Assembly: GCA_964517675.1 (NCBI GenBank)
Contig: CAZFEL010000001.1
Span: forward strand, 9,339 to 73,338
Direction of reading: 5' to 3'
Origin: an uncultured archaeon
Lineage (GTDB): Archaea > Nanohalarchaeota > Nanosalinia > Nanosalinales > Nanoanaerosalinaceae
DNA length: 64,000 bases
Shown: piece by piece, positions 8,366 through 49,025 of the stretch
How positions within the stretch are numbered: position 1 is the first letter of the stretch
Layout of the letters: each line of letters begins with the position of its first letter
Translations under genes and position numbers: made by a program
The notes under the pieces: model-generated
Told to the model about the DNA's origin: nothing
The model's input: the letters and a program-made list of their open reading frames with translations, nothing else
Databases searched by the model: none

Positions 8366-8388
8366 GGGTCCGTGGTCTAGTTGGTCAG
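8366..8388 (+). repeat. partial copy of the tRNA-Val 5' end (acceptor 5' strand plus D-arm, 23 nt)
   Basis: GGGTCCGTGGTCTAGTTGGTCAG is identical to nt 1-23 of the intact tRNA at 8484 and diverges afterwards. Confidence 0.8.
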
Positions 8389-8483: not shown

Positions 8484-8557
8484 GGGTCCGTGGTCTAGTT
8501 GGTCAGGACGTCGCCTTGACGTGGCGAAGGTCGGCGGTTCAAATCCGCTCGGACCCA
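8484..8557 (+). tRNA. tRNA-Val (anticodon GAC)
   Basis: Hand-folded cloverleaf: acceptor GGGTCCG/CGGACCC, D-stem GTCT/GGAC, anticodon stem TCGCC/GGCGA with loop TTGACGT, T-arm GGCGG-TTCAAAT-CCGCT, discriminator A. Confidence 0.85.
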
Positions 8558-8615: not shown

Positions 8616-8639
8616 GCGGTCCAAATCCGCTCGGACCCA
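8616..8639 (+). repeat. partial copy of the tRNA-Val 3' end (T-arm plus acceptor 3' strand, 24 nt, 1 mismatch)
   Basis: GCGGTCCAAATCCGCTCGGACCCA versus tRNA GCGGTTCAAATCCGCTCGGACCCA. Lies about 58 nt downstream of the tRNA. Confidence 0.8.
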
Positions 8640-18610: not shown

Positions 18611-19102
18611 ATGCAGCTGAACCGCGACGAGTTGCGGCGTCGGATCGAGGACGACGGGCTCCTCAAGGGATACCGGGATCTCGACAGACAACTGACACCG
18701 AACGGGTTCGATATGAGTGTCGCGGAGGTCCACAGGTTCGAGGGACCGGGCCAGCTCGATTTCACGAACGAACAGCGGCAGCTCCCGGAGACGACCGAGC
18801 TCGAACCGCAGGACGACTGGTGGGAGCTCGAGAACACAGTATACAAGCTTGTGATGCAGGAAAAGGTCGATATCCCGCTCGATCTTGTCGGTATCGGGTT
18901 CCCCCGATCATCGCTGATGCGGATGGGAGCCCACATCCAGAACGGGTTCTGGGAAGCTGGCTACGAGGGCAGGACGGAGTGCCTGCTCGCTGTCGATAAC
19001 CCTGAAGGCATGCGACTGAAAGACGGTGCCCGCGTCCTCCAGATCAGCTTCCACGAGCTCGAAGATGTCGATGACGGGTACGATGGACGGTACAGCGTCT
19101 AG
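18611..19102 (+). CDS. dut: dUTP diphosphatase-like protein (dCTP deaminase/dUTPase family, haloarchaeal Dut type)
   Basis: 163 aa. LVGIGFPRSSLMRMGAHIQNGFWEAGYEG parallels the dCTP-deaminase-family active-site region (compare dcd at 53072). Confidence 0.65.
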   Translation: MQLNRDELRRRIEDDGLLKGYRDLDRQLTPNGFDMSVAEVHRFEGPGQLDFTNEQRQLPETTELEPQDDWWELENTVYKLVMQEKVDIPLDLVGIGFPRSSLMRMGAHIQNGFWEAGYEGRTECLLAVDNPEGMRLKDGARVLQISFHELEDVDDGYDGRYSV

Positions 19103-19755
19103 ATCTGCTTGAGATCGACATCGATCCCGTCCTCGATCTCCATGATGCCGTAATATCCCTCCTGGACCGGTCCGGGGTTGATGACGGTCGTCCCGCCGAG
19201 GGTGTCGATGCTGCGTCCCTCGTGGACGTGTCCTGTGAGGACGAGATCGAGATCTGTCTCCTCGATGAGTTCGCGGACCGCCGTGCTGCCGACGTGGTCC
19301 TCATCCGTGACATCGGCAGCGACGCCGAACGGCGGCTGGTGGATGACCGCCACCCTCGTATCGGCCTGCATGCGGCCGTACAGCTGGGAGAGGACATCTT
19401 TGATTGCATCTTCCTCCGGCTCAAATGGCGTCCCGAACGGCGTGATACCGCCACCGAACCCGATGGCGTCGAAGGCATCGAAGGAGGCGACGTTCTTGTG
19501 CAGGTTCATCCTGTAGTCGATCAGCGTCCCGACACAGTCCTCCTCGGGGTCCATGTTGCCGGGGACGGCCTTCGCCAGCTTGCGCTGCTCGTTGAAGACC
19601 TCGAGGACCTCTTTGAGCCGGCCCTTGTAGTCGCTGTAGGAGCTGGCATCGCTGATATCGCCGGCACAGAGGGCGACATCGTAGTCTTCGGTTTCGAGGA
19701 CGGTTTCGAGCGAATCAACATCGCCGTGGATGTCTGTGGTGAGGAGAACGCGCAT
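19099..19755 (-). CDS. metallophosphoesterase (calcineurin-like phosphoesterase)
   Basis: DIHGD ... GD ... GNMD ... GHVHE motifs. ATG at 19755. Confidence 0.8.
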   Translation of the reverse strand: MRVLLTTDIHGDVDSLETVLETEDYDVALCAGDISDASSYSDYKGRLKEVLEVFNEQRKLAKAVPGNMDPEEDCVGTLIDYRMNLHKNVASFDAFDAIGFGGGITPFGTPFEPEEDAIKDVLSQLYGRMQADTRVAVIHQPPFGVAADVTDEDHVGSTAVRELIEETDLDLVLTGHVHEGRSIDTLGGTTVINPGPVQEGYYGIMEIEDGIDVDLKQI

Positions 19756-19777
19756 AGGTGAGAATGGGGAAGACACA

Positions 19778-19809: not shown

Positions 19810-20110
19810 GACCAGGCCATACAGACCGGTCTCTCTGGGGTCTGCGTGGACTCCGGCCCCGCCGGAGTGGAGCGCAGGTGACCTTCAGGGCGGACCGCTC
19901 TGGCCCAAGCCCCGATGGCTAAGCCTGGTATAGCGGCCGACTCGTAATGGGCGCGGATCGTCCGCGTCCACGGTCCTGGATGCTCTCCCCATGGCCTGGC
20001 GGGAGCCCAGGGTACGCCCAGTCTTTCCCTGGCTAGGAAAGACGCCTGTGATGAGGAGGATCATTAAGTGCTTGAGCTAACGCGATGATGATGTGAACAC
20101 CCTCCGAGCA
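19810..20110 (+). ncRNA. structured ncRNA candidate, most consistent with SRP (7S) RNA
   Basis: About 300-nt non-coding GC-rich stretch with a long-range helix (CGTGGAC ... GTCCACG) and several perfect local hairpins (GCGCGGA-TCG-TCCGCG; GTCTTTCC-ctggcta-GGAAAGAC). CCGGAGTGGAGCGCAGG resembles the SRP domain IV CCGGAAGG-AGCA motif. RNase P is disfavoured because the motif order is wrong. Confidence 0.3.
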
Positions 20111-20183
20111 GGGTTACCGGGCTGTAAAATGCAGGAGGCACCGCTAACGCGTACTGCCCGCTGCAGACGAGATATCGGCAGGT

Positions 20184-20209
20184 CCCGGGTTCAAATCCCG
20201 GTCGGGGCT
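20184..20209 (+). repeat. tRNA 3'-end-like element, copy 1 (T-arm CCGGG-TTCAAAT-CCCGG plus acceptor 3' strand TCGGGGC)
   Basis: One of three direct copies (20184, 20275, 20357). No matching 5' acceptor strand exists upstream, so it is not a full tRNA. Confidence 0.7.
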
Positions 20210-20274
20210 TCTCTTTGCCTTCTTTCGGTATGTTCGGGGATTTGATAGCCTCGAGAAAATCTCCGATTTTCGAC

Positions 20275-20299
20275 GGGTTCAAATCCCGGTCGGGGCTTC
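20275..20299 (+). repeat. tRNA 3'-end-like element, copy 2
   Basis: GGGTTCAAATCCCGGTCGGGGCTTC is identical to the core of copy 1. Confidence 0.7.
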
Positions 20300-20356: not shown

Positions 20357-20421
20357 GGGAGTTCAAATCCCGGTCGGGGCTTCTCTTTGACATCTCTCGA
20401 TATTTTCGGGATTTGATAGCT
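20357..20421 (+). repeat. tRNA 3'-end-like element, copy 3, plus shared about 40-nt downstream unit
   Basis: GGGAGTTCAAATCCCGGTCGGGGCTTC followed by TCTTTGaCaTCTcTCGaTATtTTCGGGATTTGATAGC, which also follows copy 1. Confidence 0.7.
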
Positions 20422-29332: not shown

Positions 29333-29562
29333 AGGAGGTAGCCACGGAGTGGTCGTCACCCTCCAGAAACAATCGGCGGGCACAGGAAGCCGAGGTAGCC
29401 AAGTGGAACATCTTGGCAACCCCCTCTGTCAAGAGGAATATAGTACGCGGAGGTAGCCAAGTGGAACATCTTGGCAACCCCCTCTGTCAAGAGGAATATA
29501 GTACGCGGAGGTAGCCAAGTGGAACATCTTGGCAACCCCCTCTGTCAAGAGGAATATAGTAC
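29333..29562 (+). repeat. tandem array of four 56-58-nt units, each beginning with a copy of the first 18 nt of tRNA-Leu(CAG)
   Basis: Units at 29389, 29447 and 29505 (58 nt) are 57-58/58 identical and start with GC(G/C)GAGGTAGCCAAGTGG. The unit at 29333 is degenerate. The array abuts the intact tRNA at 29563. Confidence 0.85.
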
Positions 29563-29645
29563 GCGGAGGTAGCCAAGTGGCCAAAGGCGCAGCGTTCAGG
29601 GCGCTGTCGGTTAGCCGTTCGCAGGTTCGAATCCTGCCCTCCGCA
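29563..29645 (+). tRNA. tRNA-Leu (anticodon CAG)
   Basis: Hand-folded: acceptor GCGGAGG/CCTCCGC, anticodon stem CAGCG/CGCTG with loop TTCAGGG, long variable arm, T-arm GCAGG-TTCGAAT-CCTGC, discriminator A. Confidence 0.9.
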
Positions 29646-47514: not shown

Positions 47515-48144
47515 GTGATGCTAGAAGAACAACGGAAGGAGGTACTCGAGCACGCACCAGACCTCGCTGATATGACACCGGCACGGACAGGTAACCTCTC
47601 GGTCAGGGACGGCGACAGGTTCGCCGTGACACCGACGGGTGTCGCCTACGATGACTTCGACCTCGATGACGTCCCCGTGGTCGATATGGACGGCGACCAC
47701 ATCGCCGGGGAGATGGAACCGACCAGCGAGGTCCCGATGCATACCGGCATCTACCGGCAGCGGGACGCGGGAGCAATCGTGCACACCCACTCGACGTGGG
47801 CGACGACGATGGCGGTGCTGCATGAACCACTCCCACCGATCCATTACATGATCACGACCTCGGGCAAGGAGATCCCTGTCGCGGAGTACGCGACATACGG
47901 CACGCGGGAGCTTGCAGACAACGTTGTCGCCGCTTTGGAGGAAAGCGCCTCGCGCTCCTGCTTCATCGCGAACCACGGCCTGGTCGTGATGGCGGATGAC
48001 ATCGAGACGGCCATCGAGAACGCGGTCCACATCGAGAACCTCTCGAAGATCTACCTCAACGCCAGACAGGTCGGTGAACCCAAGGAGCTGCCGGACGAGA
48101 AGCTGGATGCGGTCATCGAGAAGTTCAGGGACTACGGCCAGTGA
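47515..48144 (+). CDS. class II aldolase/adducin-family protein (fuculose-phosphate aldolase-like)
   Basis: GNLSVR ... HTHS ... ANHG motifs. Confidence 0.85.
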
Positions 48145-48243
48145 CATCCGCAGTTTTAAAACTGGCACACGTATTGGGCGATTGCCAGTCCATGGTCGGT
48201 TCGCCATGCGAACCGTCCGGCGCTGTCGACTGGCGCGCCAGTC

Positions 48244-48385
48244 GCGGGGGTAGCCAAGTGGCCAAAGGCGCAGGGCTTAGGTTCCCGGCTCCTTATCCGA
48301 GGAGGCGGGTTGAGAAGATCTCTGATCTTCGAACGAAGATACCCTGTCCCTCAGGGGTTCGCAGGTTCGAATCCTGTCCCCCGCA
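48244..48385 (+). tRNA. tRNA-Leu (anticodon TAG) with a putative 59-nt intron after position 37
   Basis: Exon 1 (48244-48281: acceptor, D-arm, CAGGG-CTTAGG) and exon 2 (48341-48385: A-CCCTG, long variable arm, T-arm, acceptor CCCCCGC-A) assemble into a perfect type-II cloverleaf. The intervening 59 nt contain two hairpins. Confidence 0.6.
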
Positions 48386-48445
48386 TTTCACCTTCGTTCA
48401 GTGCTTCCGCCAGTATTCGGCACCCGAGAAAGCCTGCTTTCGACG

Positions 48446-48466
48446 GTCGAATCCTGTCCCCACGCA
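48446..48466 (+). repeat. partial copy of the tRNA-Leu(TAG) 3' end
   Basis: GGTCGAATCCTGTCCCCACGCA versus tRNA GGTTCGAATCCTGTCCCCCGCA. About 60 nt downstream of the tRNA. Confidence 0.7.
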
Positions 48467-48494
48467 TTCTTCCTTTCCTCAGAACCGACCACGA

Positions 48495-49025
48495 TCACGC
48501 CTGGTCCCCGTTGACAGTCCCGTAGTAGATCAGGTCGACATAGCTCCCGTCAAGATAGGCGTGATCGCGGAACCGTCCTTCCTGCTCGAAGCCGACCTTC
48601 TCGAACAGACGCTGTGAAGCCTCGTTGCCCTCGTGGGCCCGGGCGTACAGCTTGTGGTAGTTGAGCTGGTCGAAGGCATACGTGACGAACAGCTCCATCG
48701 CCTCGGTCCCATATCCTTCCCCGTGGTACTCCGGGTGGATCCAGATCCCGAGGCGCCCGATCCGCTCTGGTTCATTTTCCTGTGGCTCGAGGCCCACGAC
48801 ACCCATCGGGTCGCCGTTTTCACAGATGAGAAGCTGGACAGAATCACCGCTACAGATCACCTCCTCGAAGAACTGCCGCTCGTCCTCGAGGTTCTTCGGC
48901 TCGGGGTTGCCCACGTCCACGCGGACATCAGGATGGTTGATCCCGTCGCGGAGGAACGGGACATCATCCTCCTCGATCGTGCACAGCTCGATGCGGTCGC
49001 CGTCGATGAACGTCGCTCCAGGCAT
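48495..49025 (-). CDS. GNAT family N-acetyltransferase (RimL-like)
   Basis: WIHPEYHGEGYGTEA acetyl-CoA-binding motif. Confidence 0.8.
   Translation of the reverse strand: MPGATFIDGDRIELCTIEEDDVPFLRDGINHPDVRVDVGNPEPKNLEDERQFFEEVICSGDSVQLLICENGDPMGVVGLEPQENEPERIGRLGIWIHPEYHGEGYGTEAMELFVTYAFDQLNYHKLYARAHEGNEASQRLFEKVGFEQEGRFRDHAYLDGSYVDLIYYGTVNGDQA

Follow-up and report, generated by a model that had tools for sequence, protein, structure and literature searches.

A Conserved Anticodon-Loop Intron with a Relaxed Splice Motif in the tRNA-Leu(UAG) Gene of a Probable Nanohaloarchaeon, and Partial Copies of tRNA Ends Around It

Introduction

Is a tRNA gene that is interrupted in its anticodon loop, and followed closely by a fragment of its own 3' end, a working gene with an intron or a broken one? 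The question is raised by the tRNA-Leu(UAG) gene of a 64-kb stretch of archaeal DNA (hereafter the window, meaning the whole stretch that was analysed), in which the two halves of the tRNA are separated by 59 nt and a 22-nt copy of the tRNA 3' end lies a short distance downstream. The answer developed here, which we hold with good confidence, is that the locus probably encodes an expressed and functional tRNA-Leu(UAG) with a spliced intron of the relaxed hBH/BHL (bulge-helix-loop) type, and that the downstream fragment is a decayed copy, most likely derived from recombination. The structure and conservation of the gene are described first, followed by its predicted splice motif, the sequences that surround it and the other tRNA genes of the window, and the alternatives to this reading.

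The Interrupted tRNA-Leu(UAG) Gene

When introns are allowed, ARAGORN identifies positions 48244-48385 as tRNA-Leu(tag) with a 59-nt intron after nt 37, the canonical site; the same program run without introns misses the gene. The Rfam model RF00005 spans the interval end to end with 46.9 bits, against a gathering score of 29, and places a 62-nt insertion in the anticodon loop. The insertion thus interrupts a tRNA gene, and without it the cloverleaf is complete according to ARAGORN with introns, Rfam and folding alike: the spliced 83-mer forms a clean type-II cloverleaf with a UAG anticodon, G37, a long variable arm and the discriminator A73 (ARAGORN). A first-pass annotation of the sequence had proposed both a 59-nt intron at position 37/38 and a perfect type-II cloverleaf upon its removal, and both proposals are borne out, the former by the orthologs described below as well. 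Cut sites other than 37/38 would give a non-functional anticodon loop. The parts of the gene, all on the forward strand, are as follows.

48244..48281 (+), exon 1, nt 1-37: acceptor 5' strand, D arm, anticodon stem 5' strand and CUUAGG (ARAGORN, Rfam)
48276..48278 (+), 5' strand of the central helix, C32 U33 U34, pairing with intron nt 55-57 (48336-48338)
48282..48340 (+), intron of 59 nt at position 37/38 (ARAGORN and folds)
48284..48309 (+), intron hairpin P1: outer stem CCCG/CGGG, inner stem CUCCU/AGGAG (minimum free energy, MFE, folds)
48314..48330 (+), intron hairpin P2: GAAGAUC-UCU-GAUCUUC, with GA flanking it on either side (MFE folds)
48339..48341 (+), 3-nt bulge A-U|A38 with the 3' splice site, flanked by the anticodon stem and the central helix
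48341..48385 (+), exon 2: A38, anticodon stem 3' strand, long variable arm, T arm, acceptor 3' strand and discriminator A
48154..48161 (+), TATA-like box TTTTAAAA, about 83 nt 5' of the mature end; putative promoter, read from the sequence
48198..48243 (+), 5' leader with two predicted hairpins, read from the sequence
48198-48214 (+), leader hairpin 1, GGTTCGC-CAT-GCGAACC
48228-48243 (+), leader hairpin 2, GACTGGCG/CGCCAGTC, abutting tRNA nt 1

The intron folds as a three-way junction composed of a central helix, P1 and P2. Two intron hairpins had been pointed out earlier (CTCCT/AGGAG and GAAGATC-TCT-GATCTTC), and both are present, the first of them nested in the outer CCCG/CGGG stem of P1. 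The primary transcript would begin with the structured leader, contain the tRNA with the 59-nt intron after nt 37 and finish with a structured trailer; the splicing endonuclease EndA would remove the intron and an RtcB-type ligase would join the exons, giving the predicted exon-exon junction GGGCUUAGG|ACCCUGUCC. Transcription, cleavage by EndA and ligation are all steps that we infer from the sequence.

Conservation in Related Contigs

Two syntenic metagenome contigs, L015 and L016, carry orthologs of the locus, giving three sequences in total with that of the window. The aldolase gene adjoining the tRNA is 92% (L015) and 90% (L016) identical to that of the window, and the flanks are 84.4% identical over 2.4 kb in L015 and 81.0% identical over 4.9 kb in L016. 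Both contigs hold tRNA-Leu(UAG) in the same genomic place and with an intron at the same site. The exons match those of the window at 83/83 positions in either contig (exon 1, 38/38; exon 2, 45/45), the intron is 89.8% identical in L016 (59 nt) and 69.4% identical in L015 (62 nt), and the 5' leader is 68% and 59% identical, respectively. Because 83 unchanged positions are improbable (probability <1e-6) at a neutral background identity of ~82%, the exons must be under purifying selection, with the intron evolving between them.

The intron does not evolve freely in its form. Its length stays within 59-62 nt across the three sequences, and both hairpins persist, with 99.2% of cells paired and a single compensatory pair in P1 as in P2. 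The outer stem of P1 is invariant and its inner stem becomes CCCC/GGGG in L015 through one compensatory pair (U-A to C-G); P2 likewise shows one compensatory pair in L015 (G-C to A-U). As the hairpins are kept, each with a compensatory pair, the insertion is best read as a functional intron and not as the mark of a broken gene. The TATA-like motif (cagTTTTAAA) is conserved in L015 and L016 despite a leader identity of just 59-68%, and leader hairpin 2 is preserved in L016 through compensatory changes (AACTGCCG/CGGCAGTT); it is because of this conserved box and compensatory hairpin that the locus has the appearance of a working unit. L015 has AAACTT-CGCAC-AAGTTT at the position of leader hairpin 2 instead. 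Hairpins resembling a T arm, of the form GGTTCGC-NNN-GCGAACC, recur in the leaders and trailers of tRNA-Leu(UAG) in the window (48198-48214), L015, L016 and a further contig, L017.

Searches for the gene beyond these contigs returned little. A scan of genome contigs with the pattern GGCCAAAGGCG-N6-CTTAGGB gave only 14 unrelated bacterial matches, and the same pattern gave 28 unrelated matches in a collection of metagenome contigs in which L015 and L016 are not included; the D-loop anchor GGCCAAAGGCG is too specific (the relatives have GGTCAAAGG), so that the scan is uninformative on how rare the intron is. Scans of viral contigs for the exon, the P2 hairpin and a trailer module described below (AGAAGCGCCAGCTTC) produced nothing or coding-sequence coincidences only, and the locus was unmatched in BLAST searches of plasmids and phages. 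A search for further orthologs through the downstream AAA ATPase gene did find contigs, from which the tRNA is absent.

The Splice Motif

The canonical register of the splice motif was written out as an explicit pair table for the window, L015 and L016. The anticodon stem of 5 bp is perfect and invariant in all three, as is the 3-nt bulge that holds the 3' splice site, and the central helix consists of the pairs C32-G, U33-A and U34-A, the last being U·G in L015 and L016. In constrained and suboptimal folds, the 5' splice site falls within the strand that joins the central helix, P1 and P2. All three orthologs therefore contain the parts that define the relaxed hBH/BHL form, namely a 5-bp outer helix, one AU|A bulge and a 3-pair central helix. 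An alternative partner for the central helix, the UGAG between P1 and P2, would form a near-canonical 5' half-motif in the window, and was rejected as it is not conserved in L015 or L016.

In the proposed mechanism, EndA would meet the 3' site in a 3-nt bulge of canonical form (A-U|A38), bordered on one side by the 5-bp anticodon stem and on the other by a central helix made of C32-U33-U34 and the penultimate GAAG/GGAG of the intron. The 5' site, G37|U, would not sit in a 3-nt bulge closed by an outer helix and would fall instead in the strand of the three-way junction that connects the central helix, P1 and P2, which would make the substrate a relaxed hBH/BHL at the canonical position. This is a recognised class of relaxed motif (PMC6379350, PMC5829648), and BHL introns at 37/38 are among the substrates of the alpha'2 EndA of A. 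fulgidus when the pre-tRNA is full-length (PMC6379350). DPANN EndAs carry an extra L3 loop, which is associated with more disrupted tRNA genes (PMC5829648), and a relaxed motif is plausible at this locus because the host appears to be a nanohaloarchaeon.

Several observations weigh against this reading. The strict hBHBh' motif (two 3-nt bulges, a 4-bp central helix and two outer helices) is unable to form in any of the three orthologs: the fourth position of the central helix, A35·G[-6], is mismatched in all of them, and so, beyond the 5' "bulge" G36-G37|U, are the first three positions of the outer helix h' (i2-i4 with [-7] to [-9]). EndAs of narrow specificity, such as the alpha2 enzyme of Haloferax, reportedly cut hBHBh' exclusively (PMC7714728), and strictness is also ascribed to the alpha4 and alpha2 enzymes of Euryarchaeota (PMC4090602). 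The covariation statistics are weak as well, with three orthologs and 62/500 shuffles reaching the observed score. The bulge-helix-bulge check suggested by the first-pass annotation has a divided outcome in the pair table of the three orthologs, the relaxed form being present and the strict form absent.

Host Lineage

The organism is treated here as a high-GC (60%) nanohaloarchaeon, and hence as a member of DPANN, on the basis of database labels and synteny rather than phylogeny. A 610-kb contig of Joint Genome Institute (JGI) metagenome 3300031844 contains the window with 100% identity. All named matches among the 120 best-scoring homologs of its metallophosphoesterase (19099-19776) are Candidatus Nanohaloarchaea, and a UMP kinase at least 90% identical to the copy in the window carries the same label. 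A contig of a metagenome-assembled genome, L059 (GCA_034190465.1), labelled Nanohaloarchaea by NCBI, is syntenic with the window over 12.7-26 kb at 67-76% DNA identity. The locus had previously been placed in a haloarchaeal frame, which is probably wrong given the NCBI label of these close relatives. The class II aldolase encoded directly upstream of the tRNA (47515-48144) has its best named relatives in Halobacteria, at only 66-68% identity; with named matches in Halobacteria only, this gene could reflect transfer between host and symbiont lineages.

The Downstream Copy and the tRNA 3' End

Beyond the last base of tRNA-Leu(UAG), two further features complete the locus.

48386..48444 (+), trailer of 59 nt, with a degenerate inverted T-loop GUAUUCGGCACC and a small hairpin GAGAAAGCCUGCUUUCGAC at 48426-48444
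48445..48466 (+), decayed T-loop-to-discriminator copy GGTCGAATCCTGTCCCCACGCA, beginning after the trailer

The 22-nt copy of the tRNA 3' end that had been reported about 60 nt downstream is real. It shares an exact 15-nt core (48447-48461) with the T-loop and acceptor strand of the tRNA, and two single-base indels separate it from 48364-48385; with up to two mismatches allowed, the 15-mer core has 3 matches in the window, compared with 0.34 expected from shuffles. The MFE fold of the trailer has a stem between the inverted T-loop and the T-loop copy downstream, with the small hairpin enclosed.

The window is homologous to L015 and L016 up to the final base of tRNA-Leu(UAG) and no further. Beyond it, a segment of ~2 kb (trailer and AAA ATPase gene) that separates the tRNA from the stop codon of a GNAT gene in L015, L016 and another contig, L061, is missing from the window. 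Since homology breaks at this point and a ~2-kb segment is missing, the tRNA 3' end appears to be a recombination hot spot and a rearrangement breakpoint in this lineage. Either the window has lost this segment or the relatives have gained it. The distance from the tRNA to the GNAT acetyltransferase gene is 109 nt in the window (48386-48494) and ~2 kb in the relatives, whose extra segment comprises a structured trailer and the gene of a 532-aa single-domain AAA ATPase (L015:2408-3732, L016:5879-7451, L061:5529-6230).

Partial tRNA copies are a known footprint of elements that integrate into tRNA genes (PMC9897764), and a direct repeat of the 3' part of a tRNA extending to its 3' end, which is the criterion for an attachment-site (att) scar, is found for tRNA-Leu(UAG), tRNA-Val, tRNA-Thr (two copies) and tRNA-Met. 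The 22-nt segment is a decaying duplicate of the T-loop-to-3' end and most likely a remnant of recombination at that end. It does not fit a plain integration scar, because the repeats are merely 59-90 nt apart, their spacers contain shared conserved hairpins, 5' copies occur too, and no integrase lies beside any of the five tRNAs of the window: a Pfam scan of the 10 open reading frames flanking them found no integrase or element genes beside the repeats, and housekeeping families only.

Partial tRNA-End Copies and Hairpin Families Across the Window

All five tRNAs of the window (5/5) have partial copies of their own ends nearby, as the first-pass annotation had remarked of the other tRNAs. Those of tRNA-Val, tRNA-Thr and tRNA-Met sit 60-120 nt from the gene. 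Besides the copy at tRNA-Leu(UAG), they are as follows.

tRNA-Val (8484-8557): copy of nt 1-23 at 8366-8388 (100%) and copy of nt 51-74 at 8616-8639 (96%)
tRNA-Thr: two T-loop-to-3'-end copies, at ~20274-20299 and 20357-20384
tRNA-Leu(CAG) (29563-29645): perfect tandem array of 58 nt x 3.3 at 29392-29580
tRNA-Met (61915-61991, minus strand): copy of nt 55-77 at 61824-61846 (100%)
P2 copy, 18/19, at 61850-61868 (minus strand), in the tRNA-Met trailer
P2 copy, 16/19, at 20254-20272, in the tRNA-Thr trailer

The tandem array, whose repeats match at 100%, lies directly upstream of tRNA-Leu(CAG) and extends into it, each unit consisting of the first 18 nt of the tRNA and 40 nt of upstream sequence. 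The 3' copies have a common order, in which an inverted version of the local T-loop is followed by a small hairpin and then by the T-loop-to-discriminator copy; in MFE folds of the trailers, the inverted T-loop and the T-loop copy pair around the small hairpin. The z-scores of these folds are -3.3 for tRNA-Val, -2.2 for tRNA-Thr, -0.07 for tRNA-Leu(UAG) and -2.3 for tRNA-Met.

The small hairpins belong to families. The first, AGAAGATCTCYGATCTTCG (the P2 type, AGAARATCTCYGATYTTCG), has 3 copies in the window against 0.01 expected, and the second, AGAAGCGCCAGCTTC, occurs in the trailer of tRNA-Val and, in the contigs L017 and L018 (only ~70% DNA identity to the window), in that of tRNA-Leu(CAG), followed in each case by the T-loop copy of the local tRNA. 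The modules vary among relatives, being absent in L016 and L059 and degenerate in L015.

Alternative Explanations

Three other explanations of the locus deserve consideration, two of which concern the intron itself. The tRNA-Leu(UAG) gene could be a pseudogene in which a small hairpin-bearing element has inserted into the anticodon loop and is not spliced, with another copy of the tRNA doing the decoding. The failure of the strict bulge-helix-bulge to form would be expected of such a gene, P2 is a repeated sequence that is also present in tRNA trailers, and the genome is rich in rearrangements of tRNA ends. We nevertheless judge this explanation improbable, for the exons remain identical (83/83) in three lineages whose flanks are 16-19% and introns 10-31% divergent, the insert is steady in length and its stems are altered by compensatory substitutions, the three orthologs do not differ in the context of the 3' splice site, and the promoter-like box and leader hairpin are conserved; gene conversion from an intact copy, which might otherwise keep the exons uniform, would have removed the insert as well. 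Still less credence can be given to the idea that the intron gives rise to a box C/D guide RNA, as the tRNA-Trp intron of haloarchaea does. The first-pass annotation had likened a CTGA of the intron to box D, and the tetramer (CUGA, intron nt 41-44) is indeed present in the window and in L016; P2 is moreover flanked by GA...GA in all three introns, which could allow tandem sheared G·A pairs. A regex search found no C box in the introns of the window, L015 and L016, either as RUGAUGA or even as UGAUGA (0/3). CUGA spans the loop and 3' strand of P2, and is thereby buried in a conserved hairpin where it does occur; it is lost in L015, whose P2 reads GAAAAUCC-GUCA-GGAUUUUC. An Rfam search of 48150-48520 at E<=10 yields tRNA only and no C/D family, whereas the tRNA-Thr intron described below gives weak C/D matches. 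An intron of 59 nt with two stable hairpins does not accommodate two guide regions, and a kink-turn (K-turn) reading of the GA...GA around P2 gives no convincing C-stem. The guide RNA was rejected on the missing C box, the unconserved CUGA and the lack of an Rfam match, and with it goes the box D proposal; the search for C/D boxes that had been recommended gave no C box in any of the three introns and no C/D family over 48150-48520.

The remaining alternative concerns the downstream fragment, which may be part of a functional or self-propagating module of the tRNA unit rather than a scar. The 3' fragment and its hairpin spacer would together form this module, with P2 as a member of the same family, and would serve in processing, termination or protein binding, or else be a miniature mobile element. 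This view draws on the presence of such copies at 5/5 tRNAs in the window, on the single nested architecture common to the 3' copies, on the lack of an integrase nearby, and on the two hairpin families, which span different tRNAs and relatives at ~70% identity while their arms match the local tRNA. Its weaknesses are that the modules are not constant, L016 and L059 being without them and L015 having only degenerate acceptor-like bits, that the copy at tRNA-Leu(UAG) has decayed and does not fold better than shuffles do (z = -0.07), and that its basis is a 64-kb window and a few short contigs. We regard such a module as a tentative possibility, less probable than a decayed recombination remnant beside a functional, intron-bearing tRNA-Leu(UAG), though clearly ahead of the other two explanations.

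Origin of the Intron

The likeness of P2 to the hairpin of the tRNA-Met trailer (18/19) is not a matter of chance. It reflects either common descent or a constraint acting on both, for example if the parts of pre-tRNAs that are thrown away carry the same signal for binding or processing. The rest of the intron was also considered as a decayed duplicate of a tRNA 3' half, an idea that was dropped as the local alignment is not significant against shuffles; the exception is L015 aligned with the variable arm (p ~0.02, uncorrected). A more speculative proposal, which we think rather unlikely, is that hairpin modules duplicate or move around tRNA ends, producing the 5' and 3' copies, and that one of them landed in the anticodon-loop intron of tRNA-Leu(UAG) or was the origin of it. 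An intron with a relaxed motif would then have been tolerated because a broad-specificity DPANN endonuclease is able to splice hBH. If true, this would be a caught-in-the-act route of tRNA intron gain at the DNA level.

A Second Intron in tRNA-Thr(CGU)

A second intron-containing tRNA gene of the window was found by ARAGORN with introns and refined, having been missed by default ARAGORN and by Rfam at its gathering threshold.

19909-20209, tRNA-Thr(CGU), with a 227-nt intron at position 37/38 (19947-20173)

Once spliced, it gives a perfect cloverleaf, and the central helix of its splice motif is made of 4 Watson-Crick pairs. The intron is conserved in a contig with 82.6% DNA identity (L058:1-447, minus strand) and is 254 nt long in the Nanohaloarchaea-labelled L059 (L059:5504-5844, minus strand), and about 60 nt of the 5' leader are highly conserved. 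The intron contains C/D-like boxes (GUGAUGA at 20048-20054, UGAUGA at 20086-20091 and CCGA at 20104-20107) and has weak, sub-threshold Rfam matches to archaeal C/D sRNA families (E = 0.2-0.6), which makes it a better C/D candidate than the tRNA-Leu(UAG) intron. Introns are thus present in 2/5 tRNAs of the window, both in isoacceptors that are intron-less in Haloferax.

Significance

The tRNA-Leu(UAG) gene is a genuine addition to a well-known kind, an intron-bearing archaeal tRNA gene with a relaxed motif and no guide RNA. Together with its neighbour tRNA-Thr(CGU), it extends the intron-bearing isoacceptors of salt-adapted archaea, which in Haloferax are limited to Trp, Met and Gln (PMC7714728), and it would provide a naturally conserved relaxed hBH substrate with a three-way junction at the canonical position in a DPANN lineage. 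There is also a practical side, as annotation pipelines blind to introns miss both genes: default ARAGORN found 3/5 tRNAs in the window, and a metagenome-assembled genome (MAG) annotated without introns would seem devoid of decoders for CUA and ACG. A concrete, testable lead on the origin of tRNA introns and of rearrangements in tRNA flanks comes from the hairpin that several tRNA loci share and from the partial end copies seen at all five tRNAs.

Comparison with Known Systems

The closest relatives of the tRNA-Leu(UAG) intron in kind are the archaeal 37/38 introns with relaxed hBH/BHL motifs (Marck and Grosjean classification; PMC6379350, PMC4090602, PMC5829648). It shares with them the canonical position and the restoration of the cloverleaf, as well as an anticodon stem, a 3-nt bulge with the 3' site and a central helix, with the 5' site in a loop. 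It differs in that its central helix has 3 Watson-Crick or wobble pairs and a conserved A·G, that its 5' site is part of a three-way junction, two arms of which are conserved hairpins, and that its host is apparently a nanohaloarchaeon.

The tRNA introns of Haloferax volcanii (Trp-CCA, 103 nt; Met-CAU, 75 nt; Gln-UUG, 31 nt) likewise occupy the canonical position in a salt-adapted archaeon and are excised by EndA, as the tRNA-Leu(UAG) intron is taken to be from its sequence (PMC7714728). The Haloferax introns have the strict hBHBh' demanded by the alpha2 enzyme, whereas the motif here is relaxed, and the Trp intron bears a C/D guide RNA, whereas the intron of tRNA-Leu(UAG) is without C/D boxes (PMC7714728). 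The isoacceptor, Leu-UAG, and the organism, which belongs to DPANN rather than to Halobacteria, are different as well.

As for the origin of such sequences, the intron transposition or gain described for Thermoproteales (Fujishima et al., 2010, as summarised in PMC4090602) resembles the present case in that related sequences occur at different tRNA-associated sites of one genome, and both, to the extent of that summary, suggest spread of intron-like sequence at the DNA level. According to the same summary, whole introns are similar between tRNA genes in Thermoproteales, whereas only a 19-nt hairpin is shared here and its other copies are in 3' trailers (PMC4090602).

The partial tRNAs left by integrases (Williams, 2002; Reiter, 1989; PMC9897764) are similar to the downstream copy in that the repeat runs from the T-loop or T-stem exactly to the 3' end, and in that the tRNA 3' end is a synteny breakpoint. 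Unlike those systems, in which the repeats are kilobases apart, the copies of the window are separated by 59-90 nt without integrase or element genes, include copies of 5' ends, among them the perfect 58-nt x 3.3 tandem array, and have spacers that share conserved hairpins.

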